A stretch of 64,000 bases of DNA from a virus (lineage: Duplodnaviria; Heunggongvirae; Uroviricota; Caudoviricetes). The translations under genes were made by a program, and so were the position numbers. Shown here piece after piece: positions 7,831 to 63,314 of the stretch. The stretch is from IMG/VR virus record IMGVR_UViG_2925939204_000001; one strand, 5' to 3'. Every line of letters starts with the position of its first letter. Position 1 is the stretch's first letter. The notes beneath the pieces were generated by a model. It made no database searches and was not told the origin of the DNA. It worked only from the letters and a program-made list of their open reading frames with translations.

Positions 7831-7872
7831 CATTTGTGTTAGATAATTAATATGTATTTTCTAACACAAATG
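7831..7872. promoter_or_regulatory. operator-like 13-bp perfect inverted repeat CATTTGTGTTAGA-N16-TCTAACACAAATG
   Basis: Arms 7831-7843 and 7860-7872; AT-rich spacer TAATTAATATGTATTT; 8 nt upstream of rdgC start. Confidence 0.6.
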
Positions 7873-7879
7873 GTGAGAC

Positions 7880-8785
7880 ATGAGATCAGTCGCTTTCAAA
7901 AATATCTTCATCTATCGTCTTTCACGCGAAGTTAGCTGGGATACTGCAGAAGTAAATGCAGCCCTTAGCAAGTTTGTGTTTACCCCATGCGGTTCTCAGG
8001 ATATGGCTAAAGCTGGTTGGACCTCCGTTCTTGGTGACAACCTCACCCATGAATACCAGGGTTTTCTTCTGATACAGCATAAACGAGAGGAAAAAATCCT
8101 ACCTTCTCAAGTGCTCAAAGAAGAGTTACAGAAAAAAATCCTGACACTTGAAGAAGAGCAAGACAGAAAGCTGAAGAAGACCGAAAAAGATTCGCTGAAG
8201 GATGAAGTGCTTCACTCTCTTCTTCCTCGTGCTTTCACGAGAAAATCACTCGCCAAAATCCTGATCGACCGCAGCAACCATCTGGTATTCGTTGAGGCAA
8301 GCAGCGCCAAAAAGGCAGAGGACCAGCTGGCTTTATTGCGAAAATCGCTCGGCAGCCTGCCTGTCATTCCATTCACACCACGCGAACCGCTGGAAATTAC
8401 AATGACCGAGTGGTTTAAAAACGGCTTCCCTGCCGGATTTACAGCAGGTGAAGACGCCACATTAAAGGGTCTGCTCGATAATGGTGGTGCCGTTCGCTGC
8501 AACAAAGTTGATCTACAGTCCGACGAGATTATGTCTCACATTGAGGCGGGGAAAGTAGCTACGACCGTTGCAATTAACTGGATGGACCGCGCGTCGTTCA
8601 GAGTCAACGATGATATGAGTATCAAAGCCCTGACATTCTGTGATGATCTCTATGACCAGAACGACGATATCGACCGGGAGGATGTAGCACAACGATTTGA
8701 TGCTGATTTCGTGCTCTTTACGGGCGAATTATCTGCACTGTTTAACGCGCTGGTGGAGGCCATTGGCGGTGAAGCAGAACGTTAA
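7880..8785 (+). CDS. rdgC: recombination-associated protein RdgC
   Basis: Near-colinear match to E. coli RdgC ([51 protein letters not shown]-terminal [16 protein letters not shown]...GGEA). Confidence 0.9.
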
Positions 8786-10973: not shown

Positions 10974-12635
10974 TTAACCTAACTTCGCCCAGGTATCACG
11001 CAGCCCAACGGTGCGGTTAAATACCGGTTTTTCCGCCGTAGAATGGCGGCTGTCGAGGCAGAAATAACCTTCACGCTCAAACTGGAATGCTTTACCCGCT
11101 ACCGCTTCTTTCAGCGACGGTTCAGCAAAACCCTGTTTGATCACCAGCGATTCCGGGTTAATCACCGACAGGAAATCATCCGCAGCACCTGGGTTCGGCA
11201 CGCTGAACAGACGATCGTACAGGCGGATTTCAACCGGCAGCGCATGTGCCGCGCTCACCCAGTGAATAACGCCTTTCACTTTACGACCATCTGCCGGATC
11301 TTTGCTTAAGGTGTCGGCGTCATAAGTACAGAAGATGGTGGTGATATTGCCTTCGGCATCTTTCTCCACGCGTTCAGCCTTAATGACGTAAGCATTACGC
11401 AGACGCACTTCTTTACCCAGCACCAGACGTTTGTACTGCTTGTTAGCTTCTTCGCGGAAATCGGCGCGGTCGATCCAAATCTCACCGCTAAACGGCACCT
11501 GACGGCTACCCATTTCCGGTTTGTTTGGATGGTTCGGCATGGTGACCATTTCGCCTTCGCCCTGGTAGTTTTCGATAACCAGTTTCACCGGATCGATAAC
11601 CGCCATTGCGCGCGGCGCATTTTCGTTGAGATCTTCACGGATGCAGGATTCCAGCGACGCCATCTCAATGGTGTTGTCCTGCTTGGTCACGCCGATGCGT
11701 TTGCAGAACTCACGAATAGAAGCCGCAGTGTAACCACGACGACGCAGACCGGAAATGGTCGGCATACGCGGGTCATCCCAGCCTTCAACGTGCTTGTCGG
11801 TCACCAGCAGGTTCAGCTTACGCTTGGACATCACAGTGTATTCCAGATTCAGGCGCGAAAATTCGTACTGGCGCGGGTGAACAGGAATGGTGATGTTGTC
11901 CAGTACCCAGTCATACAGACGACGGTTGTCCTGGAACTCAAGCGTACACAGAGAGTGCGTAATACCTTCCAGCGCATCGCTGATGCAGTGGGTGAAGTCG
12001 TACATCGGGTAGATGCACCACTTGTTGCCAGTCTGGTGATGTTCAGCAAACTTAATGCGGTACAGCACCGGGTCGCGCATCACGATAAACGGCGAAGCCA
12101 TGTCGATTTTCGCACGCAGGCAGGCTTTACCTTCTTCAAAACCACCGGCACGCATTTTTTCGAACAGCGCCAGGTTCTCTTCAACGCTGCGGTCGCGGTA
12201 CGGGCTGTTTTTACCCGGCTGCGTCAGGGTGCCGCGGTATTCGCGGATCTGTTCCGGCGTCAGTTCGTCAACATACGCCAGGCCTTTGTTGATCAGTTCA
12301 ACAGCATAGGCATGGAGTTTGTCAAAATAATCGGAGGAGTAACGGATGTTGCCAGACCAGTGAAAACCTAACCATTCAACGTCGTTTTTAATCGACTCGA
12401 CGTACTCGATATCTTCTTTTACCGGGTTAGTGTCGTCGAAACGCAGGTTGCACTGGCCTTTATAGTCCTGGGCGATCCCGAAGTTCAGGCAGATAGATTT
12501 CGCATGACCAATATGCAGATAGCCATTCGGTTCCGGCGGGAAACGGGTATGTACTGTGGTGTGCTTACCACTGGCCAGATCTTCATCGATGATCTGACGA
12601 ATAAAGTTAGTCGGGCGGGCTTCTGCCTCACTCAT
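10974..12635 (-). CDS. glnS: glutaminyl-tRNA synthetase (host-like, full length 553 aa)
   Basis: Essentially colinear with E. coli GlnRS from [20 protein letters not shown], incl. class I HIGH motif (PNGYLHIGH) and VMSKR (KMSKS-type) motif. Confidence 0.95.
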
Positions 12636-17493: not shown

Positions 17494-17505
17494 ATGTTAG
17501 AAAAA
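17494..17505 (+). promoter_or_regulatory. operator-like motif ATGTTAGAAAAA
   Basis: Member of dispersed TGTGTTAGAAAA family; ~55 bp upstream of the locus-A promoter. Confidence 0.4.
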
Positions 17506-17557
17506 TAATTTGAATTTTCGAACATAAACAATAAAATAAATCATCAAAAATTTGATG

Positions 17558-17586
17558 TTGATCTTCCATGTTTTCAGGCTTATATT
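17558..17586 (+). promoter_or_regulatory. sigma70-type promoter TTGATC-N17-TATATT of immunity locus A
   Basis: Near-consensus -35/-10 with 17-nt spacer; identical promoter at 51207-51235. Confidence 0.6.
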
Positions 17587-17592
17587 CACGCC

Positions 17593-17833
17593 GTTGCAGC
17601 AAATTCTGCGACCGGGTTTAGCAGCCTGAATGTACATGCGGACAACCGCAGATATCCGATATTGCGGTATTTTTGTGTCCGTAAAACCATGTTACGCCCG
17701 AATTATGGTGGGGCGTGATGGGGAGGCTTCGGCCTGCTGGTTTCATGTACGCCAGTCTGCTAACCCCGTCACGTCCTGCCACCCGTTTAGCAGCGGGTAG
17801 CAGGTTGTTAAACCTGTACATGAGGCCGTAACT
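17593..17833 (+). ncRNA. c4-like antisense RNA / leader region of immI-like locus A
   Basis: Sites a1/b1 (17617-17638), complementary b'/a' (17744-17763) and a2/b2 (17786-17822) overlapping the SD of the next ORF; all six sites co-vary in paralogue B. Confidence 0.5.
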
Positions 17834-18049
17834 ATGGTTAATGCCAATCCTTGCGCACGCCCGGAATTTATCTGGCGCTTTTATTCCTGCACAAAACACA
17901 CCTACATCAGCGTAATGGCAGCTACTGAGGCTGAAGCGCGTTCATTTCTTCCTACAGATCCATGCATTTTTGCCGCTCGCTTTAAACTCGATGCTCTGGA
18001 CGTTTTGACCTACTGGAACCGCCCAATGAACTGCGTGGAGGTGCATTAA
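17834..18049 (+). CDS. Icd-like small protein (71 aa)
   Basis: SD overlapped by b2 site; N-terminus MVNANPCARPEFIWRF conserved with paralogue at 51483; stop overlaps ant start. Confidence 0.5.
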   Translation: MVNANPCARPEFIWRFYSCTKHTYISVMAATEAEARSFLPTDPCIFAARFKLDALDVLTYWNRPMNCVEVH

Positions 18050-19047
18050 TGGACGCAGTAACTATCAATAACAAACCATTCCCGACTCTCGAATATAAAA
18101 ATCAGCGTGTAGTGACCTTTGAGATGATTGATGAGGTGCACGAACGTGTTGATGGGGCAGCCAGGGGAACATTTAAGCGAAACAGAAGTCGTTTCATTGA
18201 AGGGGTGGATACTTATGTTATTGATTATTCTGAAAAGGGCTTTTTAAGCCCATTTGGAATTGATGTCCCCCCGCGCGGTTTGCGCGTGTTCACTGAGTCC
18301 GGCTATCTGATGATTGTTAAGTCATTCAATGACGATCTGGCCTGGCAAGTGCAACGTGAGCTGGTAAACAGCTATTTTCGTATTAAGCAATTAATACCGG
18401 AGCACTCACCGCTAAAATCAAAAGCCGAAATCCTGGCCGAAATGGCGCAAATGCATCTTGAGCATGAACGCCGGATCAACGCCGTAAATGCCCAGGTAGC
18501 CGAGGTATCAGCACAAGTATCGATGGTCGCTGAAACACTCGAGCAAATCAAGAAAGGCAATATTCCGGAAGGCTACATTGGCTACCGCCAGCTGGCGGCG
18601 AAATGTGGCCTGACTGAAGCAAAATGTCGCAACCTGGTCAACGCTTACCGGATTCCCACCGATACGCATGAGTTTTTAACTCCCGATGGTTTGCTTGCGC
18701 GACGCTCCATTGTGGCCCTGGCCCCCTTCCGGAAAGCCTTTAAGCAGGTGATGTCGGAGGCAGAACCACGCAATAAACGCTGGTATCATCCAAAGATGGG
18801 GATGTTTCAGGCAATCCACCATCCTGTGCCTGAAAGCCCAAAGGATAATCTGTCACTACATACCGTCAGAGAGAAGATCAGGACTGGATACGCAACAGTG
18901 TGTCGTCGTTCTTCCTGGCCTGAAGGTATATGGGTGTGGCCCGAAGGTGGATCACGAAAGCACTGGCGCACTATCCGGGACGGGAAAATCCATGCTATTG
19001 ATTTAGCGCCAGAGGATATTGTTGCTACGGACTGGATTGTTAGTTAA
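18049..19047 (+). CDS. antirepressor (Ant)-like protein with C-terminal DUF2829-like segment (332 aa)
   Basis: N-terminal Bro-N/ORF6N-like region; central block KKGNIPEGYIGYRQLAAKCGLTEAKCRNLVNAYRIPTDTHEFLTP shared with 51707 paralogue; C-terminus ATVCRRSSW...LAPEDIVATDWIVS. Confidence 0.6.
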   Translation: MDAVTINNKPFPTLEYKNQRVVTFEMIDEVHERVDGAARGTFKRNRSRFIEGVDTYVIDYSEKGFLSPFGIDVPPRGLRVFTESGYLMIVKSFNDDLAWQVQRELVNSYFRIKQLIPEHSPLKSKAEILAEMAQMHLEHERRINAVNAQVAEVSAQVSMVAETLEQIKKGNIPEGYIGYRQLAAKCGLTEAKCRNLVNAYRIPTDTHEFLTPDGLLARRSIVALAPFRKAFKQVMSEAEPRNKRWYHPKMGMFQAIHHPVPESPKDNLSLHTVREKIRTGYATVCRRSSWPEGIWVWPEGGSRKHWRTIRDGKIHAIDLAPEDIVATDWIVS

Positions 19048-19053
19048 TTACTG

Positions 19054-19082
19054 TTGCCCCGGCCTGTCCGGGGCTTTCGTGA
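19054..19082 (+). terminator. rho-independent terminator (GCCCCGG-CCTGT-CCGGGGC + TTTCGT)
   Basis: GC-rich 7-bp stem followed by T-rich tract right after ant stop. Confidence 0.6.
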
Positions 19083-49906: not shown

Positions 49907-49924
49907 TCGCCTCGTTAAGTTAAA

Positions 49925-49934
49925 TTTCTAACAT
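49925..49934 (-). promoter_or_regulatory. operator-like motif (ATGTTAGAAA on minus strand)
   Basis: TTTCTAACAT next to near-palindrome AGTGTAT-TTAT-ATACACT. Confidence 0.35.
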
Positions 49935-50019
49935 AGTGTATTTATATACACTGTTGATCCTGGTGGATGGGATCGAGTAGGATCGCGGTCACTGCTCCGG
50001 TAGCGACTGCCAAAAAAGC

Positions 50020-50106: not shown

Positions 50107-51069
50107 GTGAGTATTTTAAATTCAGTTTCAGTAACTTTCAACACTTCTGAGTATAAAAACAACACTGAATACCACAAAAAAATCAAAGGTCATCAGTTGA
50201 GTTTTTTTGCTCGTCATAGCGGTCTTCTTTCCCCTTCACATAGCGCCATTATTGCCGAGTTCGCCAACCTGGCAGGGGCTACCGATGAATACATGATCCG
50301 TCGCTCATATGCTGATATGTCCGAGATTACAGGACGCAGTATTTCTACTGTGCGCCGGGCATTTGCTGAAGCGACGAAGTGCGGAATGCTTGTTAAGCAA
50401 CATCAGGTAGCGAATAACAATGCCCAGGTGTGTAACGTATATCGGTTTACGACACAATTTCTCCACTTCATTCATGTAGCAATGGAGATAGGGGGTAAGC
50501 AGGGCATCAAATTTGCCAACGCCACAAAACTGGTTAAGCAGTTGATTTCAAAGGTTCGTTATTTTTTTGAAACTGGGAACCCCCTGTTCAAATTGAACAA
50601 GTCCCCCCATGTTCAAAATGAACAGCCAATAGAAAATAAGAGTCACTCTATAGCCAAAAGAAGAGAAAGATCATGCGCGGTTCAGCCAAAGGCTTCACCA
50701 GCAGATAGTTCTCAAGCGGATAATGGGGGACTGGATAAAAAACCAGTAATCAGGGAAGAACATACCAACCACTGCCTGGCGGCGGCAAAAGCGAGAGCTG
50801 CAAAGCGTCGTTCAGACGAGGGTCACGCAAAACGGCAGGCTCTGTATCGTACCGCTGAAAAGCTGGCAAAAAAATTTGCATGGATACGTAGTGCAGCTAC
50901 CGCAGTGAATAAGCCTAAACAATCCAGTGCCCTGGATTTCTCAATGGATTATTCTGGCTCCCAGGGGTGTGCAACCATTGGTGAAGCCTTTGACCTGATG
51001 AAACAGCGTGGCTATCGGTCTGAATTTGACCGTGAGGATTGGTCAATCCCGGCTGGCTTTAGGGGATGA
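50107..51069 (+). CDS. DNA-binding protein candidate, possibly lytic-replicon initiator-like (320 aa, GTG start)
   Basis: Predicted HTH-like segment (MSEITGRSISTVRRAFAEATKCGMLV); Lys/Arg-rich C-terminus; RepL-like assignment is inference. Confidence 0.45.
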   Translation: MSILNSVSVTFNTSEYKNNTEYHKKIKGHQLSFFARHSGLLSPSHSAIIAEFANLAGATDEYMIRRSYADMSEITGRSISTVRRAFAEATKCGMLVKQHQVANNNAQVCNVYRFTTQFLHFIHVAMEIGGKQGIKFANATKLVKQLISKVRYFFETGNPLFKLNKSPHVQNEQPIENKSHSIAKRRERSCAVQPKASPADSSQADNGGLDKKPVIREEHTNHCLAAAKARAAKRRSDEGHAKRQALYRTAEKLAKKFAWIRSAATAVNKPKQSSALDFSMDYSGSQGCATIGEAFDLMKQRGYRSEFDREDWSIPAGFRG

Positions 51070-51122: not shown

Positions 51123-51134
51123 GTGTTAGAAAAT
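51123..51134 (+). promoter_or_regulatory. operator-like motif TGTGTTAGAAAA with partial inverted partner TTTCTAA
   Basis: ~70 bp upstream of locus-B promoter. Confidence 0.4.
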
Positions 51135-51206
51135 TAATTTGCTGTTTCTAAATCGGAATGTATGATCTGCATCATCGACTGAAGTCATCCATTGCTGAAA
51201 TTTTTA

Positions 51207-51235
51207 GTTGATCTTCCATGTTTTCAGGCTTATAT
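51207..51235 (+). promoter_or_regulatory. sigma70-type promoter TTGATC-N17-TATATT of immunity locus B
   Basis: Identical to locus A promoter. Confidence 0.6.
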
Positions 51236-51241
51236 TCATGC

Positions 51242-51482
51242 CGTCGTAGCAAATTCTGCGACCAGGTTTGACAGCCTGAATGTTAGTGCGGACAACCGCA
51301 GATTTCCGATATTGCGGTATTTTTGTGTCCGTAAACCGCGTTACGCCCGAATTATGGTGGGGCGTGATGGGGAGGCTTCGGCCTGCTGGTTTCACTAACG
51401 CCAGTCTGTCAACCCTGTCACGTCCTGCCACCTGTTTGACAGCGGGTAGCAGGTTGTTAAACCTGTTAGTGAGGCCGTAACT
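51242..51482 (+). ncRNA. c4-like antisense RNA / leader region of immI-like locus B
   Basis: Sites a1/b1 (51266-51287), b'/a' (51393-51411), a2/b2 (51434-51470) with compensatory differences from locus A. Confidence 0.5.
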
Positions 51483-51707
51483 ATGGTTAATGCCAATCCT
51501 TGCTCACGTCCAGAATTCATCTGGCGTTTCCACTCCCTGCAAAAACACTGCGATCACTTCGCAATTGCCGCAACCGAAAAAGAAGCCCGTTCTCTGATCC
51601 CTGATCAGTATGGTGTTCTTACTGGTCGTTTCTCTACTTCCCCACAACCAAACACTAATCCCTGGTATCGCAATATTACCAATCCCGGAATTGCGGAGGC
51701 ACACTGA
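51483..51707 (+). CDS. Icd-like small protein (74 aa)
   Basis: N-terminus MVNANPCSRPEFIWRF paralogous to 17834 ORF; stop overlaps next start. Confidence 0.5.
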   Translation: MVNANPCSRPEFIWRFHSLQKHCDHFAIAATEKEARSLIPDQYGVLTGRFSTSPQPNTNPWYRNITNPGIAEAH

Positions 51708-52414
51708 TGGAAATCTGCATTCTTGAAAAGCCATCAATGACCAGCATTGAGATCGCTGAGCTGGTGGGAAGTCGCCCTGATAACGTTAAACGCACTATTG
51801 AACGCTTGAGTAAATCAGGTGTTATTCCACTTCCTCCAATGGAGGTTTCCGAAAATATCAATAACTTAGGATTTAAAGTTAAAAATTCACACTACGTCTT
51901 CGAAGGCGAGCAAGGCAAGCGTGACAGTATCATTGTCGTTGCGCAGCTTTCTCCCGAATTTACCGCCCGGCTGGTGGACCGCTGGCGCGAACTGGAAGAA
52001 CAAGCACGCCAGCCGTTGACCGAAATAGAGATGATCGCCGCAATGGCTGCAAATGCAGTTCAGCAGCAAAAGCGGCTTCATGTTGTTGAGTCAAAGGTTA
52101 GCCAGGTGGTAGAAACCGTTGAGCAAATCAAGAAAGGCAATATGCCGGAAGGCTACATTGGCTACCGCCAGCTGGCGGCGAAATGTGGCCTGACTGAAGC
52201 CAAATGCCGTAACCTTGTCAACGCTTACCGGATTCCCACCGATACGCATGAGTTTTTAACTCCAGAGGGGGTATTGTCGCGTCGTTCCATCGTGGCCTTA
52301 TCTCCCTTCATGAATGCTTTTAACCGGATGATGTCGGAGGCTGAACACCGAGGAAAACGCTGGTATCACCCCAAAATGGGGCAATTCCAGGTGATCGGTT
52401 GGGGAGGTGAGTGA
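51707..52414 (+). CDS. antirepressor-like protein (235 aa)
   Basis: N-terminal HTH-like SIEIAELVGSRPDNVKRTIERL; shares KKGNMPEGYIGYRQLAAKCGLTEAKCRNLVNAYRIPTDTHEFLTP block with 18049 gene. Confidence 0.55.
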   Translation: MEICILEKPSMTSIEIAELVGSRPDNVKRTIERLSKSGVIPLPPMEVSENINNLGFKVKNSHYVFEGEQGKRDSIIVVAQLSPEFTARLVDRWRELEEQARQPLTEIEMIAAMAANAVQQQKRLHVVESKVSQVVETVEQIKKGNMPEGYIGYRQLAAKCGLTEAKCRNLVNAYRIPTDTHEFLTPEGVLSRRSIVALSPFMNAFNRMMSEAEHRGKRWYHPKMGQFQVIGWGGE

Positions 52415-52611
52415 TGGACATCATGCAGGCGGTAAAAAAAATCAGGGAAGGACAGGCTGAAGTGTGCCGCCGTAAAGCATGGAGTATTGATGTATGGGCC
52501 TGGCCTGATAATTACTCTACTACCGGATGGTTTTGTATTAATGGACTCAAGATCCGGGAAGTTTATTTATCGACGGCTGATATAGTCGGTAATGATTGGA
52601 TCGTGACTTGA
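52411..52611 (+). CDS. DUF2829-like small protein (66 aa; Tad2-like candidate)
   Basis: Pattern ...QAEVCRRKAW...LSTADIVGNDWIVT (R..W near N-terminus, DxxxxDW(I/E)V C-terminus). Confidence 0.45.
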   Translation: MMDIMQAVKKIREGQAEVCRRKAWSIDVWAWPDNYSTTGWFCINGLKIREVYLSTADIVGNDWIVT

Positions 52612-52617
52612 AGCGTG

Positions 52618-52646
52618 ATGCCCCGGCCTGGCCGGGGCTTTTTTCA
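52618..52646. terminator. bidirectional terminator (GCCCCGGCC-TG-GCCGGGGC + TTTTTT)
   Basis: 9-bp GC stem with T-run; between convergent genes. Confidence 0.7.
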
Positions 52647-53204: not shown

Positions 53205-56200
53205 GTGAAAATAACATTCTCCATACCCTCTCAACCGTACCGCATAGCGGAATTTTTACGGTTTAGAGGGGGAAATCCTTTGGACAAACTACTTCATTCA
53301 ATCAGTGAAGCCTCCAGCTTAGGCGAACTGATTGAAATTGTTAGTCGGTTGCATAAATTACGAGCTGTTGCGACCTTTGGCGTCAGGAAAGCCGATGGCG
53401 TCAGTATTCAGAAAACACGCCGGGCAGCAAACAATGCCGCAGTAAATCTTCTTAATTCCCTTCCGCCCGGCTTCGATGGGGCGAAATTAACTGACGAACA
53501 ACGTCAGATTCTTGCCGGGTATACCGGTGAAGGCGGCCTGACAGATGGTGAGGGCAGCCAATACGAATACTACACGCCACAGTTTATGGCTGAAGGTATA
53601 TGGGATCTGTTTGCTGACTACGGTATTGATGGCGGGCACGTACTGGAACCATCAGCGGGCACAGGTATTTTCCAGGAGACAAAACGACAGGGCATGATAA
53701 TGACCAGCGCCGAACTGTCTCCGATTTCCGGTCGAATAAACCAGCTTTTGCACCCGGAAGACGATGTGAATATCGGGGCGTTTGAGGCGCTGGCGGCGAA
53801 AGACGCAATGTATGATCACGCTGTTGGTAACGTACCGTTTGGTGAAGGGCGTTCCGGTGTCGCCGGGCTTGATCCGGCATATGCAAACGAGAAGAACGTT
53901 GGCAATTACTTTGTGCTGCGCACGATCGACAAGGTTAAGCCTGGTGGGCTTATCGTATTGGTGGTGCCGAATGGCATGACCGATGGTGCGAAATATAAAA
54001 AATTGCGCGATAAAGTCAGCCGTAAAGCGGAATTTTTGGGCGCGCATCGTATGCCTTCCGGTACGTTCAGTGAATCAGGTACAGATACCGTGGTGGACGT
54101 ATGGGTATTGCGTAAACACCCGGAAGCCTTCCTGGAGATGATCCCCGATACGGATGATTCGACGCTCAAATCGGCAAACGTCCTTTGGGATACCTTCCTC
54201 AAAGGAAAATGGTTTACAACCGAAGGGAAGCGATTTGTTTACGGCGACATGGAACGTACCAGCTTCCGCAATACCCTGGTGGTGAAAAAAGACGGTCGTG
54301 TATCCAATGAGTCGATGAAAACCGCGCTATCTCGTCGCTTTGATAGTCGCATCAATTGGGATTTGCTCGGCGTAACTACTCAGGCATGGCAGGGCGCGAA
54401 AGTGGGCGATAAACGCCTTGTAGGCGGTATCTGGCATGAGTTTGATGGTCTGAAATGGGTTAAGGACACGACAACCAAATCCTCCGCGCTTGATGTAAGT
54501 CGATATGGTGTTTCGACGTTTGGCGATCTGCAGATCGCGTTTCAGTCAACAAATGGCATTCTGGCTTTGTCATGGGACCAGATATCGGCGATCGCGTCTG
54601 ACTACCCATCGGTTGTCAGTGATGAAGTGGCAGCAATGATTCGCTTTGCTGGCAAGCAGCGAGAAAAAGACAGGGAGCGCGTTATGCGCGGTGCACTGAT
54701 AGGTCAGTTGATCAACAAGGCACTTGATTTGCGTAACCTGGGGGTGAACGTTGATGACAAACTGGCAGATGCATCCCGCCTGGCGGCAGCAGAAGTTGCG
54801 AAGTATGGACCACCGCACGCGATTAAGCTGAATGGGCTTGCTGAAGCTGGCGCTAAAAACTGGATGACGTTCACTGGCAATGTGAAACAGGATGGTTCCA
54901 CTTCTGACCTTCTGGCAGGGCGACTTGATGTAACGGATGGTGCTGCCGGTATTGACTTTACGCGTCCTGAACAAGTGATAGCACATCTTTTTAGTGATGT
55001 AGCCCTTAATCCTATAACGCTTGGCGACTTTCGTGAGGCGTTTGCTGGTGAACTGCCAGAGGACGACGACGCGGCCCTTGAATACCTGGCGAAATTTGAT
55101 GATATCGCTATTGATGGGTATGGCTGTCTGCTGCCGATGGACCGCGCCACCAGCGGCGATGTTGCAACCAAAACAGCACTGCTGGTGGGCTGGCGTGATG
55201 CGTCAACAGGTGAGCAGAAAGCGAACTTTGAGCGTCAGTTGGCGAAAATCGAAGAGAAACGCATTTTCACGCCACTAAATAAAGTCACCGTTAATCTGAA
55301 TGCCCGCTGGCTGGATCGCCGCTTGATAAAAGAGTTCCTGGCAGAGCAGGGCTATGACGAGTTTAAGTACACTGAACCTGATCTGAAGGTCGTCGATGGC
55401 ATTCTGGTATCTCCGGACGATTACGAAGGTAAGGACGGTGTATTTACCGGCTACCAGCTACGAACCGTAAACGGCAAAAACGGGAATGAGTTCAAGAAGG
55501 CCAACAATAAAGACGGCTTCCTGAACCAGTTAGAAAACTACCTGAACGGTGTTAAACCGCGTGGGCAGAATGCTAACGAGTACCTGGATAAAATTGCTCA
55601 ACTGGAAGTTAGCTTTAACGACTGGTTACGCACCCACCCGCAGGCGGATCAGATAGCCCGTGACTATAACGACGCATTCAATGGTTTCATTCCGTTCACA
55701 CATTCTGACGCACCGCTAGGCCTGGAAGGGATTAGTGGAAAGCGCATTCCTCTGACTTATCAGAATGAAGAAGTTCGCCGCTTGTCAGAAGATGGGCGTG
55801 GCATCATGGGATTTGGTACCGGGCTGGGTAAAACCACGACCGCGCTTGCGCTTGAGGCGTATAACTTCGAAACAGGTCGCACTAAACGCACGTGTATTGT
55901 TGTTCCGAAGGCGGTTTATCAGAACTGGTATCACGAGGCACAGAGTTTCTACAGTGCTGATGCCTTCGCCAATATGATGTTTATCGGTTTGGATGAAGTT
56001 CGTGATGACGGCGGAAATATTCTTACCGCGCCAGTGCTTGATGAAAATGGCGAACCACGCCTCGACAGTAACGGGCAGCCTCTTACCAGAAATGTTGTGA
56101 AAGAGTCCGCCAGCGCCGTTATCGTTCAGCGCATGAACATGATCCCGTCGTCAAATTGGCGAACGGTCATCATGACAAAAGAACAATTCGCGTCTATCCC

Positions 56201-59200
56201 GCTACGAGAAAAAACCATCGAGGAGAACTCACAGCAAGCTGTCTTTAATGCTGTGGAAATGGGGCGTCTTGACCTGGCCTCCGGTAAACACCGTGATGCG
56301 CAGAAGAAGAACAAGATTAAGGATCAGGCCGCGAATACCGGTACAACGAAGAAGCAGAATATCCCGTACTTTGAGGATATGAACTTCGATAGCGTGATTG
56401 CCGACGAGGGGCATAACTACCGCAACTCCTTTAATGCCGGGCGTGAAGCGGGACAACTGGCATATTTGCCTAACCCGGCAGTATCCAAGATGGCCCGCGA
56501 CATGGCTGTAAAAGCTGCGTACATGATGAAACGCAACAACGGGCGTGGTGTAGTCATGCTGACGGCAACTCCGCTGGTGAACAGTCCGATTGATGCCTTC
56601 AACATGCTGTCTACTGTCATTCCGCAGGAAGAGTGGATGCGCATGGGTATTGTTACGCCGGATGATTTCGTTCGCGTGTTCGGCAAAACAGCCACAGTTC
56701 AGGTTCAGAAAATTTCCGGTGAGGTGGAAGAGAAGCAGGGGCTGGTGGGCTTCCAGAACCTTGATGGTCTGCGTGGTATTTTCCACCGTTGGACCACTCT
56801 GAAGACTGCCGCAGATGTCGGAGCGACGGTTAAAATTCCCGATATCATCGAGAACACCTTGCAGATCCCGATGACAGGGGAGCAGGAGGCTGCTTATGAA
56901 GAGCTTCGTAAGCGTGCTCAGGAGTTAAGTCGCAATGATGAGCTGACAGTCGATGAAAACGGGCATATCACTAACGACAAACCGGATGATTTCATCTTCT
57001 CCATCATCCGCGACATGGATAAGGTTGCTATAGATCCGGATCTGTATGCCAGTGCGATTACATTCCAGTTCCCCGTTGAGCTTGCAGACAAGGTAAAAGC
57101 TATTGCTGATGCCCTGCCAAAAGTCGCAGGCGGTAAAGTGGCAGATGATGCAGACGAGGCCGAAGAAGACGGCGCTGGTGGACTGGTCAGTACGCGTACC
57201 AGCAAGGTAGTGAAGACCACCTTTAGTGCACATCCGGCGCATGTTGAAATACGCGCCAGCATTGAACTGGAAGCTGAAATACTGAAGGCCATTGCTGCCG
57301 CCGGGATTGATCTGCAGCAGGTATCACACCCCATCCCACCGAAGTATGCCGCGCTGATCGAAAACCTTCGTGAAGGTCTGAAGAACGGTAAACAAATTGT
57401 CTTCATTGATGAAAAAGCCCAGCACCAGAAGCTGCGCCGTATTATCGCCAGTGCACTGCAAATGCCGGAGCAGGAGATAGGCATTATCAATGCGACGACC
57501 GTTAGCCAAGCTGGCGGCATCAAGCTGAAGAAGGTGAATAAACCGACTGAACCTACTCCGAATAAAAACGGTGAATACAAAGAAGGGGCATGGGAAACCT
57601 ACTACAGCAAACTTGCCCAATATGAGGATTATCTCTCAGCTAAAAATGATGCTGGCCTTGAGGGCATGGAAGGTATTGCCGCCGACTATAACGAAGGTCG
57701 CACGCGCATCATAATCTGTAACAAGAAGGCTGAAGTAGGTATTAACCTGCACATCGGGACAACCGATATCCACCACCTGACACTACCCTGGACACCAGCC
57801 AGTATCGACCAACGAAATGGTCGCGGTGCGCGCGTAGGGTCACCGCAAGAGAAGGTCAATGTTCACTACTATTGTGGCAAAGGCACATTCGATGACTTCC
57901 GTCTGGATACGCTTAAACGTAAGAAAGACTGGATCAAGATGGTGATGACCTCCGACATGTCAGAGATCGCCAATGGTGATGCGGATGATGCTGATGAACG
58001 CGCCATTATGCTGGCGGCAAACCCGGAAGAACGCCGCGCAATCATGGCTCGCCAGGCGCAAGAGCGTGAAGAACGTCTGAAACTGAAAGCACAGCGCGAG
58101 GCCAACAATGCTCTCGATATCTACCTGAAAGCGGCAAACGCCGCCGGAAAAGATATCGGCATGATGGAGACAGAACTGAAAAGCGCGATGGAACAGATAG
58201 AGTATTACCAGCGAAATCTTGACGACCTGATAAAAGCGGGTACGAACAGGAATGGGCAAAAATACGCACTTGAGCAGTTGAGTAGCTACAGAAAACGTGC
58301 GCGGGTGCTGCGGTTTGCGATCACCAGGGCAAAAGACGCGGATACCATAATGAAACGCTCTCGTGGTGATGTGGAGCGCGCTATTAAGTCTGGTGTGCTG
58401 GATATCAGTATCGATGTTATTCAGAACCCACAGGAGTATATGCGCACTGACAAGAATATCCTGTTGCATAAAGGTAGTTATTACCGTGCAGTCATTGATG
58501 ATCGCGAAACAACAGCGATTGTCCGGGTGGAAAAAATTGACGGTGAAAAAGCACAATACCTCTGCCGTATCGCCTGGCTGGATAGAGCAAGTCGTTACGC
58601 TCGAGCACCGGGGTCAATCGTTACATTGCCGTTTGACTCTGTGATTGAAGCGGTAACTTTTGAAGAGGGGGTAGCTGAATCGCGCGCAACGGCTGCGCGA
58701 GGTGTTCAGTGCCACCAGCTATCAACAATACTTACTCGCGATCAGTTCTATGATGCTATTCGCAATGGGGTAATGAATGTTATTGCTGGTAAACCTGGTA
58801 ATGCATGGGGCGGTGGGTCAGCTATTAAATACTGGGCATATCGCACAGATGATGGTCAGATCGCGCTGTCATCGGCCTATGATGGCGTGATAGGCCAAAA
58901 AATCGGGCGAGCATCGGATATAGCACCTGAGCGATGGATATATCCTGATGGCAACGACGAGGCGCTGAAGCGTGAAGTAGCAAAAATACAAGCCAGTGAT
59001 AACCCGCTGAATATCGTGGACGGCGAGGGATTCCTCCAGGCATTGTATGGGTATGATTACATCCAGGGAATGCAGGCATGGGGCGCACAGGCAACGATGG
59101 ATGATGTTGCCCAGGAGTTCGAAAACTGGATGGCTGGGCGTGGTCTGTCAGGTCGTTCGCTTAATAAAGTCACTTCTGAAGATATTCTTAGCTTGTTCCG

Positions 59201-60116
59201 CAAACCGTCCGGAGAAGGTCTGGAATCATTCTGGAGGACCGTGCTGGCATACCGTTTATTCCAGGGCAGGATGAAAGCCTTTAGCAATATCGATGATATT
59301 GAACGGATGTTTAATCAGGTCAAGATCGCGAAAATTAAGGCGAAGATCGAAAAAACACGTTCTGCGCTGGTGGCCTGGCGCGATGCATTGTTTGAGCAAT
59401 ATAAATCACTCAGTGATGCAGATGGATGGGCGGCATTGGAACAGCTGGCGAATAATGGGGTAGATGGAGCTAAACTCGCCATTGTTCAGGCTGATAACCC
59501 CCTGGAATCACCGGCAGCACAGTGGATTAAGGTGGGGGCTGTCATCAATGCATTTGATGAAAAACACATTAGTAAGGACGATTTTGCTGATGCTGTTTCT
59601 GTTAATCGCCTGGTAGAAATGGCTACCCGCCGCGCCCGTGAGTTGAAAGACGGCGACTATGTGAATGAGTTGCCGGATACGCTCAAATCGGCAACGTGGC
59701 AGGACTATGTATCGCTGAAAAACGGCGGGGCCACTGAATCAGAGATCGCGGAAAGGCTTGAGCAGGCTGAAAGCAAAAGAGAAGAGCAGGCGGCAGTGGC
59801 TGAAGCCAGAGCTGATGAAGCGGCGAATGATGACTATATCATTGTGGTTAATGATAAGCCGATTCGCGCTAAGGCGCGTGTTCGCGGGCGCTGGTGGAGC
59901 GTCAGCGAGGACGTTGGCGCGGTTTATCTCATTGCCGACCAACCAGGTTCCTCGACAATACGGAACGCCAAAGACGCGATTAAGAAGATTGGCGGGCGTT
60001 TCTGGAATTTTGAAGCAAACCCGGTTGCTGATGTGAACTTTGACCGTCCTGCATGGATGGTATCTACGCGTTACTCGGTAGATGAACTGCGTAAAATAAT
60101 CGCCGATGCGGCCTAA
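53205..60116 (+). CDS. darB: giant methyltransferase-helicase, DarB-like virion antirestriction protein (2303 aa, GTG start)
   Basis: N-terminal N6-adenine MTase motifs (LEPSAGTGIF, GNVPFG); central SF2 helicase motifs (GFGTGLGKTT, ADEGHNYRN, LTATPLVNSP, QRNGRGARVG); architecture matches P1 DarB as recalled. Confidence 0.8.
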   Translation: MKITFSIPSQPYRIAEFLRFRGGNPLDKLLHSISEASSLGELIEIVSRLHKLRAVATFGVRKADGVSIQKTRRAANNAAVNLLNSLPPGFDGAKLTDEQRQILAGYTGEGGLTDGEGSQYEYYTPQFMAEGIWDLFADYGIDGGHVLEPSAGTGIFQETKRQGMIMTSAELSPISGRINQLLHPEDDVNIGAFEALAAKDAMYDHAVGNVPFGEGRSGVAGLDPAYANEKNVGNYFVLRTIDKVKPGGLIVLVVPNGMTDGAKYKKLRDKVSRKAEFLGAHRMPSGTFSESGTDTVVDVWVLRKHPEAFLEMIPDTDDSTLKSANVLWDTFLKGKWFTTEGKRFVYGDMERTSFRNTLVVKKDGRVSNESMKTALSRRFDSRINWDLLGVTTQAWQGAKVGDKRLVGGIWHEFDGLKWVKDTTTKSSALDVSRYGVSTFGDLQIAFQSTNGILALSWDQISAIASDYPSVVSDEVAAMIRFAGKQREKDRERVMRGALIGQLINKALDLRNLGVNVDDKLADASRLAAAEVAKYGPPHAIKLNGLAEAGAKNWMTFTGNVKQDGSTSDLLAGRLDVTDGAAGIDFTRPEQVIAHLFSDVALNPITLGDFREAFAGELPEDDDAALEYLAKFDDIAIDGYGCLLPMDRATSGDVATKTALLVGWRDASTGEQKANFERQLAKIEEKRIFTPLNKVTVNLNARWLDRRLIKEFLAEQGYDEFKYTEPDLKVVDGILVSPDDYEGKDGVFTGYQLRTVNGKNGNEFKKANNKDGFLNQLENYLNGVKPRGQNANEYLDKIAQLEVSFNDWLRTHPQADQIARDYNDAFNGFIPFTHSDAPLGLEGISGKRIPLTYQNEEVRRLSEDGRGIMGFGTGLGKTTTALALEAYNFETGRTKRTCIVVPKAVYQNWYHEAQSFYSADAFANMMFIGLDEVRDDGGNILTAPVLDENGEPRLDSNGQPLTRNVVKESASAVIVQRMNMIPSSNWRTVIMTKEQFASIPLREKTIEENSQQAVFNAVEMGRLDLASGKHRDAQKKNKIKDQAANTGTTKKQNIPYFEDMNFDSVIADEGHNYRNSFNAGREAGQLAYLPNPAVSKMARDMAVKAAYMMKRNNGRGVVMLTATPLVNSPIDAFNMLSTVIPQEEWMRMGIVTPDDFVRVFGKTATVQVQKISGEVEEKQGLVGFQNLDGLRGIFHRWTTLKTAADVGATVKIPDIIENTLQIPMTGEQEAAYEELRKRAQELSRNDELTVDENGHITNDKPDDFIFSIIRDMDKVAIDPDLYASAITFQFPVELADKVKAIADALPKVAGGKVADDADEAEEDGAGGLVSTRTSKVVKTTFSAHPAHVEIRASIELEAEILKAIAAAGIDLQQVSHPIPPKYAALIENLREGLKNGKQIVFIDEKAQHQKLRRIIASALQMPEQEIGIINATTVSQAGGIKLKKVNKPTEPTPNKNGEYKEGAWETYYSKLAQYEDYLSAKNDAGLEGMEGIAADYNEGRTRIIICNKKAEVGINLHIGTTDIHHLTLPWTPASIDQRNGRGARVGSPQEKVNVHYYCGKGTFDDFRLDTLKRKKDWIKMVMTSDMSEIANGDADDADERAIMLAANPEERRAIMARQAQEREERLKLKAQREANNALDIYLKAANAAGKDIGMMETELKSAMEQIEYYQRNLDDLIKAGTNRNGQKYALEQLSSYRKRARVLRFAITRAKDADTIMKRSRGDVERAIKSGVLDISIDVIQNPQEYMRTDKNILLHKGSYYRAVIDDRETTAIVRVEKIDGEKAQYLCRIAWLDRASRYARAPGSIVTLPFDSVIEAVTFEEGVAESRATAARGVQCHQLSTILTRDQFYDAIRNGVMNVIAGKPGNAWGGGSAIKYWAYRTDDGQIALSSAYDGVIGQKIGRASDIAPERWIYPDGNDEALKREVAKIQASDNPLNIVDGEGFLQALYGYDYIQGMQAWGAQATMDDVAQEFENWMAGRGLSGRSLNKVTSEDILSLFRKPSGEGLESFWRTVLAYRLFQGRMKAFSNIDDIERMFNQVKIAKIKAKIEKTRSALVAWRDALFEQYKSLSDADGWAALEQLANNGVDGAKLAIVQADNPLESPAAQWIKVGAVINAFDEKHISKDDFADAVSVNRLVEMATRRARELKDGDYVNELPDTLKSATWQDYVSLKNGGATESEIAERLEQAESKREEQAAVAEARADEAANDDYIIVVNDKPIRAKARVRGRWWSVSEDVGAVYLIADQPGSSTIRNAKDAIKKIGGRFWNFEANPVADVNFDRPAWMVSTRYSVDELRKIIADAA

Positions 60117-62066: not shown

Positions 62067-62077
62067 ATGTTAGAAAA
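62067..62077 (+). promoter_or_regulatory. operator-like motif ATGTTAGAAAA
   Basis: ~30 nt upstream of 62106 gene. Confidence 0.4.
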
Positions 62078-62105
62078 CTAATTTAACAAAGTAACGGGAA
62101 TAGCA

Positions 62106-63314
62106 ATGAGTCAACACACTGATACTTCTAATCTGGAAATTATCTCGACAGCAATTGAAACGCTGCGCACACAAATCGCTCTTATACAGAAACGGAATCC
62201 GGGTGATGACCTGTCAAAGCGACTGCACGAGAGTGTCATTGCCACTACAGATAACCTGGTGGCGGAAATCAACAAGCTGCTTGATGATGGGGCAGTTGAT
62301 TACAATAAGCTGGTGGATCAGTTTGAGGAATACCAACAAGCCGTTAATGATGGCTTGATCCGTTTTTCACAAGTCACAGGCGTATCAGCGACAGTTGAAA
62401 GCCTGGGTGATGCAGTTAATCAATTTGCCGCGAATATGCGTAATGAGATCGGCAATCTGGAAGCGCGTCTTGAACAGGCAAATACACTGCGTAAATCTGC
62501 CGAAGCCGATTTGAACCGTTACAAAAAAGACTATCCGCCCAGCCTGACAAAGCGGCTGGATGTTGCGGAGAAGGATAACCGCACGCTGAAAAGAGAGCGC
62601 CGGGAACTAAAAGAGCGTTTAACCAAGCTCAATCAGAAATGCATTGATTATCAAGGCGAAGGCGTCACACTGCGTAAAAAGTTGGCTACAGCGCAGAGCA
62701 TTATCGAAACATTAAAGCGAGAGTGCTCACAGCTTGGTCACGATCTGAACCGTGCTTGTGGCATGGGACAAAGACCAGAGACATTTCCACTTATGTATGA
62801 TGGAAGGGATGCCATTGCCTACATCCATGAGTATCCACACGGCCTGGTTGCGGAAACTGGGCAGCGTGGCGAAGCACTGCTGACGGCTAATTACCATCAA
62901 CAAATCAGAACCAATCGCCTGTTAACGATGGATGTGATCCCATCGGTATGGGGAACGCCGCTTTACTATCGCCTGCCGGGCTTCGAAAAGGACTGGAATA
63001 CCGACATAGACGAATGTCTCGCAGATAAAATTATGGCGTACCTGGAGACGGATTTTCCGCGCTTATATCGCCGGATTATGGACTCTAAGGATGCGCCAAT
63101 CGATGAATTAAAAATGCGTCCGGAGACGCTGGAGGCAATCAAGCAGACGGAGTTTGATACTGTATTCAGTGTGGCCTGCATTCCAAGCTGTTTCCATGAA
63201 AGCATCCCGTTCATGCAAGGAGATCGTCGTCAGGAAATCATTGACGCTTGCCGGGTATGGGCGAACGAATGGGATAAGAAGAATGGGGGTGTAGAAGATC
63301 TTTACGGGAAATAA
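62106..63314 (+). CDS. hypothetical protein with N-terminal coiled coil and C-terminal globular domain (402 aa)
   Basis: Operator-like motif in its upstream region; no motif recognised. Confidence 0.55.
   Translation: MSQHTDTSNLEIISTAIETLRTQIALIQKRNPGDDLSKRLHESVIATTDNLVAEINKLLDDGAVDYNKLVDQFEEYQQAVNDGLIRFSQVTGVSATVESLGDAVNQFAANMRNEIGNLEARLEQANTLRKSAEADLNRYKKDYPPSLTKRLDVAEKDNRTLKRERRELKERLTKLNQKCIDYQGEGVTLRKKLATAQSIIETLKRECSQLGHDLNRACGMGQRPETFPLMYDGRDAIAYIHEYPHGLVAETGQRGEALLTANYHQQIRTNRLLTMDVIPSVWGTPLYYRLPGFEKDWNTDIDECLADKIMAYLETDFPRLYRRIMDSKDAPIDELKMRPETLEAIKQTEFDTVFSVACIPSCFHESIPFMQGDRRQEIIDACRVWANEWDKKNGGVEDLYGK

Follow-up and report, generated by a model that had tools for sequence, protein, structure and literature searches.

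The window analysed here is the whole 64,000-nucleotide (nt) stretch of a Caudoviricetes virus record (IMG/VR IMGVR_UViG_2925939204_000001). Positions 17,494 to 19,082 of this window contain a regulatory locus, here called locus A, in which a c4-type antisense RNA precedes an icd-like gene and an antirepressor-like gene (ant), as in the immI operon of phages P1 and P7. The locus was singled out in an initial annotation made from the letters and their open reading frames (ORFs). Its features are as follows, with the basis of each assignment:

17495..17512 (+), putative C1-operator-like site of the D6 type, TGTTAGAAAAATAATTTG, overlapping the -35 hexamer of the upstream promoter; positional analogue of P1 Op51/Oc4
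17510..17537 (+), predicted upstream sigma-70-like promoter, TTGAAT-N16-TAAAAT (consensus scan); analogue of P1 P2c4 (P51a)
17558-17563 and 17581-17586 (+), -35 and -10 hexamers of the main promoter, TTGATC-N17-TATATT (sequence; consensus scan); aligns with the annotated P1 promoter P1c4 (P51b)
near G17593 (+), predicted transcription start, 7 nt past the -10 hexamer, where the match to the isrK model begins
17593..17674 (+), IsrK-like leader RNA of ~82 nt, with a 5' hairpin, a hairpin with a1 in its loop, b1 and a terminator-like hairpin; U-run at 17669-17675
17617-17625 (+), a1, TTTAGCAGC, in a hairpin loop (sequence)
17631-17638 (+), b1, TGTACATG (sequence)
17705..17781 (+), C4 antisense RNA, mature 77-nt form as predicted from the annotated c4 of P1 by alignment
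17744-17750 (+), b', CATGTAC, in the loop of the second C4 hairpin
17757-17763 (+), a', CTGCTAA, in the 3' single-stranded junction of C4
17786-17794 (+), a2, TTTAGCAGC, target site; the equivalent P1 site is annotated as a C4 target
17815-17822 (+), b2, TGTACATG, target site; the equivalent P1 site is likewise annotated
17822-17825 (+), icd Shine-Dalgarno sequence GAGG, 8 nt before the ATG at 17834
17834..18049 (+), icd-like gene, 71 amino acids (aa) (NCBIfam, PHROG, BLAST identity to P1 Icd)
18049..19047 (+), antirepressor-like gene, 332 aa (Pfam ORF6N; PHROG anti-repressor families)
19056..19074 (+), GC-rich hairpin GCCCCGG-CCTGT-CCGGGGC after the ant stop codon

RNAs, promoters and genes of locus A

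The c4-type antisense RNA proposed in the initial annotation is recovered by Infernal with the Rfam C4 model (RF01695), which matches positions 17701-17786 on the plus strand over model positions 1-87 with 71.7 bits (threshold 45, E 5.3e-12). The companion c4-a1b1 model (RF03163) matches 17580-17632 with 53.5 bits (gathering threshold 46.7, E 1.1e-10 in the scan of the whole window). The presence of these RNAs is beyond chance because both Rfam scores exceed curated thresholds and because the pairing sites co-vary across related loci. The minimum free energy (MFE) fold of C4, at -45.1 kcal/mol, is the structure of the Rfam family, and both a' and b' are unpaired in the Rfam alignment as well as in this fold. 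By alignment with the annotated 77-nt c4 of P1 and P7, C4 would be excised as an RNA of ~77 nt. The 5' end of C4 in P1 and P7 is made by RNase P.

The two unpaired segments of C4 are complementary to sites on the same strand that flank or cover the ribosome-binding site of the downstream gene. All six a and b sites can be read directly in the sequence where they had been placed, and b2 shares its final G with the start of the Shine-Dalgarno sequence GAGG. Pairing of a' and b' with these sites stands as proposed, with the correction that exact Watson-Crick pairing spans 7 nt in a (TTAGCAG/CTGCTAA) and 7 nt in b, where, as in P1, one G.U pair is added. The cognate duplexes have energies of -9.3 kcal/mol for a':a2 and -12.0 kcal/mol for b':b2, values that derive solely from the excised a and b segments.

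In the leader upstream of C4, a1 and b1 are followed by a 3'-terminal hairpin at 17645-17668 (-7.6 kcal/mol) and by AUUUUUG. A stem-loop and T-run had been noted at this place as a feature of its own between a1/b1 and the antisense core; the structure is present, and it forms the 3' end of the IsrK-like leader rather than an isolated element. A simple terminator scan of the window did not flag this hairpin, probably because of its bulge. The Rfam isrK model (RF01394) matches 17593-17674 over its full length (model positions 1-77) with 47.3 bits (E 3.2e-9) under permissive thresholds. Folding of the region 17594-17850 gives a structure much more stable than that of shuffled sequence (z = -5.9).

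The main promoter was read in the sequence as near-consensus, and the consensus scan lists it too with 9 of 12 matches. The upstream promoter is presumably repressible by C1; the layout of the site at 17495-17512 over the -35 hexamer is that of P1, in which Op51 lies over P51a (P2c4). The operator-like motif TGTTAGAAAAWTAATTTG/R occurs five times in the window against 0.16 expected (~30-fold), and the other 28 kb of the plasmid hold five more copies against 0.13 expected. Among these sites are ones upstream of c4 (in locus A and in a second module, locus B), repL, ref and c1, and TGTTAGAAAAWTAATTTG is found just upstream of the main promoter in both modules of the window (locus B copy at 51124-51141). 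The genes repL, ref and c1 are members of the P1 C1 regulon. The P1 C1 operator consensus ATTGCTCTAATAAATTT has no match in the window at up to three mismatches. The motif is thus best described as a putative D6-type C1 operator, its binding by C1 being suggested by sequence and position.

Further copies of the putative D6-type operator, TGTTAGAAAAWTAATTTR, are located at 7837-7854 (+, with an inverted partner to ~7870), 49916-49933 (-) and 62068-62085 (+). The copy at 7837-7854 is within a coding sequence annotated as baseplate-like, directly ahead of an in-frame ATG at 7880, the copy at 49916-49933 is upstream of a repL-like gene, and the copy at 62068-62085 precedes an ATG at 62107. Three GATC sites are clustered in ~30 nt at window positions 49950-49990, between the operator-like site and the repL-like gene, and recall the Dam-methylation sites annotated at P1 PkilA.

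The first gene of the operon encodes a 71-aa protein that belongs to the NCBIfam family NF033153, phage_ICD_like (46.5 bits, cut-off 25), matches phrog_1426 (E 4e-37) and is 67% identical to P1 Icd, in agreement with its earlier description as icd-like. The product is a predicted cell-division inhibitor. P1 Icd itself is reported to be growth-inhibitory and to block Z-ring formation (PMC11897509). The stop codon of icd and the start codon of ant overlap as TAATG at 18047-18051, the coupled arrangement of an immI operon that the initial annotation had assigned to these two genes.

The second gene encodes a 332-aa protein with an ORF6N domain (PF10543) at aa 14-92, identified by Pfam with 46.4 bits (cut-off 27.8, E 5e-12). 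The protein also matches the PHROG anti-repressor families phrog_1726, 4608 and 63, of which phrog_63 and phrog_1726 are matched by P1 Ant1 as well. Its position and domain type suggest an antirepressor of C1. The hairpin that follows ant has a predicted energy of -15.0 kcal/mol and a weak T-run, and is the probable terminator of the operon; the same hairpin, there with a TTTTTT tail, ends locus B, where it was flagged by the terminator scan.

Replicon, sister modules and specificity letters

Several non-mobilizable Escherichia coli plasmids of ~91-93 kb in PLSDB, for example NZ_CP020051.1, are 100% identical over the region, and 578 PLSDB records share part of it. Locus A itself is 99.6-100% identical in at least eight independent E. 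coli plasmids from poultry, turkey and human sources. Among phages, megablast matched D6 (MF356679) to the 3' half of the ant gene of locus A at 94.7% identity, and P1, P7 and their relatives to the regulatory part and the 5' part of icd only, at 88-91%. The genes flanking locus A have the content and order of D6 read in reverse, and the C1 repressor of the plasmid is 99% identical to D6 C1. These matches, the gene order and the D6-type C1 identify the window as part of a D6-like, P1-family plasmid prophage of E. coli. Locus A is located between upfB and the capsid gene, where it takes the place of D6 orf53-55; D6 itself therefore lacks locus A, which is an additional insertion. The plasmid also carries the toxin-antitoxin pairs RelE/HigA and Phd/Doc. 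Elsewhere in the window, a plasmid-borne glutaminyl-tRNA synthetase gene (glnS) lies at ~10974-12635 (-), and D6 has glnS too; a DarB-like antirestriction ORF of 2303 aa is found at 53205-60116 (+). Both are typical D6/P1 cargo and have no relation to locus A.

A second complete immI-type module, locus B, lies in the same window, and a third is found outside it on the plasmid:

51124-52640 (+), locus B, found in the Rfam scan, with its RNA part at 51230-51435
51208-36 (+), locus B promoter
51230-82 (+), locus B c4-a1b1
51350-51435 (+), locus B C4
51483-51707 (+), locus B icd
51707-52414 (+), locus B ant, of the Rha/winged-helix type
52411-52611 (+), 66-aa ORF of locus B, phrog_7385
52620-38 (+), strong terminator of locus B (scan)
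NZ_CP020051.1 ~53.6-55.1 kb (L126 1655-3076) (-), third module, with isrK (61.3 bits) and a divergent C4 (77.1 bits)

Locus B adjoins the repL-like gene at 50107-51069, as D6 orf19-17 do. In the third module, which is the counterpart of D6 orf83/82, both isrK and C4 score above the Rfam thresholds, and a 71-aa Icd and a 313-aa Ant are encoded; no gene is listed for this ant in the PLSDB table.

The Ant proteins of the three modules share parts of their sequence. Residues 124-256 of the locus A protein are 67% identical to the locus B Ant, a middle domain that is common to the Ant proteins of the plasmid, and the C-terminal ~210 aa are nearly identical to the third-module Ant. The tail of the protein (aa 275-332, window 18871-19044) has 45% identity to the 66-aa ORF that stands on its own in locus B, which points to a gene fusion or fission between modules. 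This domain (phrog_7385) has no match in Pfam or PDB, and Pfam returned nothing for the 66-aa ORF or for either Icd-like ORF of loci A and B. A DUF2829/Tad2-like assignment of the tail was dropped, as Pfam gave no support at E <= 0.01 and a PDB sequence search returned nothing significant. Locus A as a whole is a four-part mosaic of a P7-like RNA cassette, a third-module-like 3' part of icd, an ORF6N N-domain and a C-terminal Ant half of the D6 lineage. The shared middle domain, together with a D6-type C1 that is unlike P1 C1, fits a common lineage-specific target of these Ant proteins.

The differences between the modules are concentrated in the a and b letters. In a four-way alignment of locus A, locus B, P1 and P7 (annotated immI records NC_005856 and AF503408) from the -35 hexamer to the icd start, 18 of 42 columns vary in the a/b sites and 24 of 237 elsewhere (Fisher p = 1.4e-6), the leader being otherwise near-invariant. 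The alleles are:

P1: a TTTGACAGC, b TGTTAGTG
P7: a TTTAGCAGC, b TGATTGTG
Locus A: a TTTAGCAGC, b TGTACATG

Locus B carries the exact P1 code. The a allele of locus A is that of P7, and its b allele (GTACATG; b' CATGTAC) is absent from both P1 and P7. Between loci A and B, two of seven positions are different in a' and three of seven in b', and P1 and P7 differ by two in each; the heteroimmunity of P1 and P7 rests on this c4 difference (PMC12197685; PMC6906374). Summed segment duplexes give ~-21 kcal/mol for cognate a' plus b' pairing, compared with -9.8 kcal/mol for locus A C4 on the locus B targets and -6.0 kcal/mol for locus B C4 on the locus A targets. Pairing between locus A and P7 reaches -11 to -12.5 kcal/mol because only the a site is shared. 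Given the letter differences and the weak cross-pairing, the two modules of the window are expected to be orthogonal. The a/b letters set specificity and the code of locus A is unlike that of locus B, so locus A should be blind to the C4 of its co-resident P1-type module.

This pattern was followed in IMG/VR by exact match to a conserved 23-mer of C4, which yielded at least 120 loci, 114 of which were parsed. Among the matches listed, 113 of the 114 have a1 equal to a2 and b1 equal to b2, with a' and b' as their perfect complements, and 11 a x b combinations are present, drawn from two a-alleles and six b-alleles. The combination of locus A occurs in at least four IMG/VR loci. RNA-cassette alleles occur with different downstream ant types, which indicates that cassette and effector reassort. 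The exact Ant architecture of locus A was not found among 88 IMG/VR relatives. Matches to ORF6N in P1-type loci of the ant-type survey probably come from kilA within the 2.3-kb range and not from ant, and no conclusion is drawn from them.

The sole exception of the 114, among the matches listed, is locus L045 (IMGVR_UViG_2565956613_000015; C4 anchor position 125, reverse strand), in which b2 is GTTAGTG, of the P1 type, and is mismatched to its own b' and b1 of the ACGAATG type. L045 is possibly a recombinant in which repression of icd/ant is partly lost.

Two or three modules are present in each of eight replicons, the window and D6 included; within a replicon the b alleles of the modules are never alike, and the a allele is shared in some cases. 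The pattern of b is suggestive, as the sample is small and non-independent: from the allele frequencies of the survey, the chance of b always being different is estimated at ~4% for 12 non-independent pairs. Two IMG/VR contigs, 2703718869_000013 (L019, L054, L103) and 651053023_000001 (L016, L079, L108), contain three P1-type C4 modules each. Each contig holds three different b alleles, and the three modules of 651053023_000001 all share one a allele.

Proposed regulation and alternative roles

The likeness of locus A to the P1/P7 c4 architecture, which the initial annotation had proposed, is supported by the Rfam C4 and a1/b1 models, the near-identical leader, the Icd homology and a gene order that matches the annotated immI operons. 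Locus A very probably functions as an immI-type module for lysogeny control in a D6-like (P1-family) plasmid prophage.

By this account, transcription would start near 17593 from the promoter at 17558-17586, which is expected to be constitutive, with the second promoter at 17510-37 probably under C1 repression. The first ~82 nt would form an IsrK-like leader that shows a1 and b1 and ends in the terminator-like hairpin and U-run. Transcripts that read through would hold C4 (17705-17781), to be excised as a 77-nt RNA if the P1 precedent applies. The b' loop and a' junction of C4 would pair with b2 and a2 on the mRNA of the same operon and cover the icd Shine-Dalgarno sequence; icd would not be translated, and the coupled antirepressor gene would then remain untranslated as well. 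In P1 the downstream gene is also incompletely transcribed, through Rho-dependent polarity. Icd and Ant would be made where C4 is insufficient or titrated, and Ant would then presumably inactivate the D6-type C1 repressor. The short a1/b1 leader is a candidate anti-antisense RNA that, by homology with IsrK, could be freed as a short transcript and titrate C4.

Several points weigh against this reading. RNAcofold of full C4 with the target segments, a check suggested in the initial annotation, gave 0 kcal/mol net gain for cognate and non-cognate pairs alike, a result that is expected because loop-loop (pseudoknotted) contacts cannot be formed by RNAcofold. The isrK match of the leader lies 2.7 bits below the Rfam gathering threshold of 50, and the leader is not filed as IsrK for this reason; the leaders of P7 (43.7 bits) and P1 (35.1 bits) are also below the threshold. 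The 332-aa protein exhibits no BLASTP similarity to P1 Ant1 (E 0.96), carries no NCBIfam name, and has no related solved structure in a PDB sequence search. The earlier antirepressor assignment of this protein thus holds for its PHROG anti-repressor families, position and domain type, and does not extend to a BLASTP-detectable homologue of P1 Ant1/2. The C1 gene is located outside the window. Processing of the RNA, termination at 17675 and Rho polarity are proposed on the precedent of P1 and Gifsy-1.

Three other explanations concern the role of locus A, not its mechanism, and all are less likely than the P1/P7-type reading. Locus A could expand immunity, its extra C4 code being kept to silence the antirepressor operon of superinfecting relatives with the same code and so to protect the resident from induction, with its own icd and ant being secondary. 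The stacking of two to three modules with always different b alleles in eight replicons, the window and D6 among them, agrees with such a role, as do the exact P1 code of locus B, the combinatorial code across the population, the reassortment of RNA-cassette alleles with different ant types and the dependence of P1/P7 heteroimmunity on c4 (PMC12197685; PMC6906374). However, locus A has intact, coupled icd and ant ORFs, which are thus apparently selected too, and the different-b pattern is no more than suggestive at ~4% chance for 12 non-independent pairs; immunity expansion as the main role is regarded as possible without being favoured. A role in plasmid addiction is improbable. Here c4 and icd would form an RNA-antitoxin/toxin module in which Icd blocks division after plasmid loss and the downstream gene is a passenger. 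The growth inhibition and Z-ring block reported for P1 Icd (PMC11897509) are compatible with a toxin, the repressor is an RNA acting at the ribosome-binding site of this toxin, and a low-copy plasmid that already has RelE/HigA and Phd/Doc pairs is a plausible host. Post-segregational killing, however, needs an antitoxin that is less stable than the toxin message, and C4 has a very stable tRNA-like fold (-45 kcal/mol); antisense and target also come from one transcript, so both would vanish together, and the P1 immI literature assigns the operon to the lysis-lysogeny decision.

The mosaic origin of locus A raises the further question of whether it is a recently acquired, recombinant and inert remnant that is intact only through youth. 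The locus combines a P7-like cassette, third-module-like parts in the icd 3' region and the Ant C-terminal half, and an ORF6N N-domain; it sits in place of D6 orf53-55 where D6 has no such module, and its exact Ant architecture is not seen among the 88 relatives. All six a/b sites are nevertheless perfectly matched despite a b allele unlike those of P1, P7 and locus B, a state that needs three coordinated changes. The promoters, Shine-Dalgarno sequence, both ORFs and terminator are intact, the allele combination recurs in at least four IMG/VR loci and the whole locus in at least eight plasmids, which leaves an inert remnant very improbable.

The functional immI-type reading can be joined with the population data in a broader and tentative proposal. 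P1/D6-family plasmid prophages would use a combinatorial code of two a-alleles and at least six b-alleles and would stack two to three orthogonal modules. Discrimination would fall mainly to the b site, since modules of one genome can have the same a allele and in the sample never had the same b allele. Extra modules would serve as portable immunity cassettes that silence the antirepressors of relatives, or as separate induction channels, and the a1/b1 leader would be an IsrK-type terminated small RNA (sRNA) that titrates C4. If true, this proposal unifies P1 c4 and Gifsy-1 IsrK into one three-RNA switch of decoy, antisense and target. For the a1/b1 sites, long without an explanation, the near-threshold match to IsrK points to a concrete function. 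The basic picture of the locus stays the same, and it is the combinatorial code and the link to IsrK that deserve further work.

For annotation, locus A should be labelled as a c4/icd/ant immI-type module, since the RefSeq annotation stops at 'Icd-like' and 'ORF6N domain' proteins and does not mark the RNAs. D6-like and P1-like phage-plasmids commonly carry resistance genes in E. coli and Salmonella, and it is their immunity code that determines which relatives can coexist with, exclude or induce each other. With its eleven a x b combinations on a near-invariant scaffold, the code also offers a natural set of orthogonal RNA repressors and targets that could be reused as synthetic regulators.

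Comparison with known systems

The closest known system is the immI operon of P1 and P7 (c4-icd-ant1/ant2), which was reportedly described by Citron and Schuster in 1990. Locus A has the same order of parts, including C1-controlled and constitutive promoters, a1/b1, the 77-nt C4 and a2/b2; the P1/P7 regulatory region is 88-91% identical to that of locus A, and the Icd proteins of P1 and locus A share 67% identity. The differences lie in the b allele, in the overlap of icd with the downstream gene (ATGA in P1 immI, TAATG in locus A), and in the downstream protein, which is not a BLASTP homologue of Ant1/2. The operator-like site also differs in sequence from that of P1, and the host element is D6-like and not the Punavirus P1. 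Whereas kilA-repL follow immI in P1, they are absent after locus A, where the capsid gene cluster is located instead.

D6 (orf19/18/17 and orf83/82) and D6-like prophages such as pYU39_89 belong to the same phage lineage as locus A, and the presence of more than one c4/icd region in D6-like plasmids has already been noted (PMC6799933). Locus B is the counterpart of D6 orf19-17, and locus A stands at a third position relative to the two regions of D6. The D6 orf82 gene exhibits ~95% DNA identity to the part of locus A that encodes the C-terminal ~210 aa of Ant. The cassette of locus A is of the P1/P7 RNA type, in contrast to the divergent isrK and C4 type of D6 orf83/82, and its Ant has an ORF6N N-domain where the orf82-type protein has a Rha-like one.

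A further likeness is to the CI RNA and seqA-seqC of satellite phage P4, in which an antisense RNA is likewise processed from the transcript that holds its two flanking targets. The likeness of IsrK to P4 CI immunity is drawn in the IsrK paper itself (PMC4825925). Unlike C4, P4 CI acts by premature transcription termination of replication genes, and Rfam scans of the window found no sequence or Rfam link of locus A to it.

The Gifsy-1 IsrK-orf45-AnrP system of Salmonella (Hershko-Shalev et al. 2016, PMC4825925) resembles the leader of locus A, with a 5' hairpin, a hairpin with an a1-like loop and a terminator. The Gifsy-1 IsrK RNA is 77 nt long with its 3' end at a Rho-independent terminator, and transcripts that pass this terminator form an isrK-orf45-anrP mRNA that is translationally silent; supplied in trans, the short terminated IsrK activates translation of orf45 and, by coupling, also that of the antirepressor AnrP (PMC4825925). 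STnc1160, a processed RNA of ~80 nt located downstream of IsrK, is complementary to IsrK (PMC4825925). As proposed for locus A, read-through thus enters a small ORF whose translation is coupled to that of an antirepressor gene, and an RNA of ~80 nt lies between the leader and this ORF. The small ORF is a 71-aa Icd homologue in locus A and a 45-aa ORF in Gifsy-1, and the emphasis in Gifsy-1 is on activation by the short IsrK, while in P1 it is on repression by C4. Set against these systems, the mechanism of locus A is that of P1 and P7 as known from 1990-1995; what is new is a code that is neither that of P1 nor that of P7, an effector that is not of the Ant1/2 type and a new genomic position.

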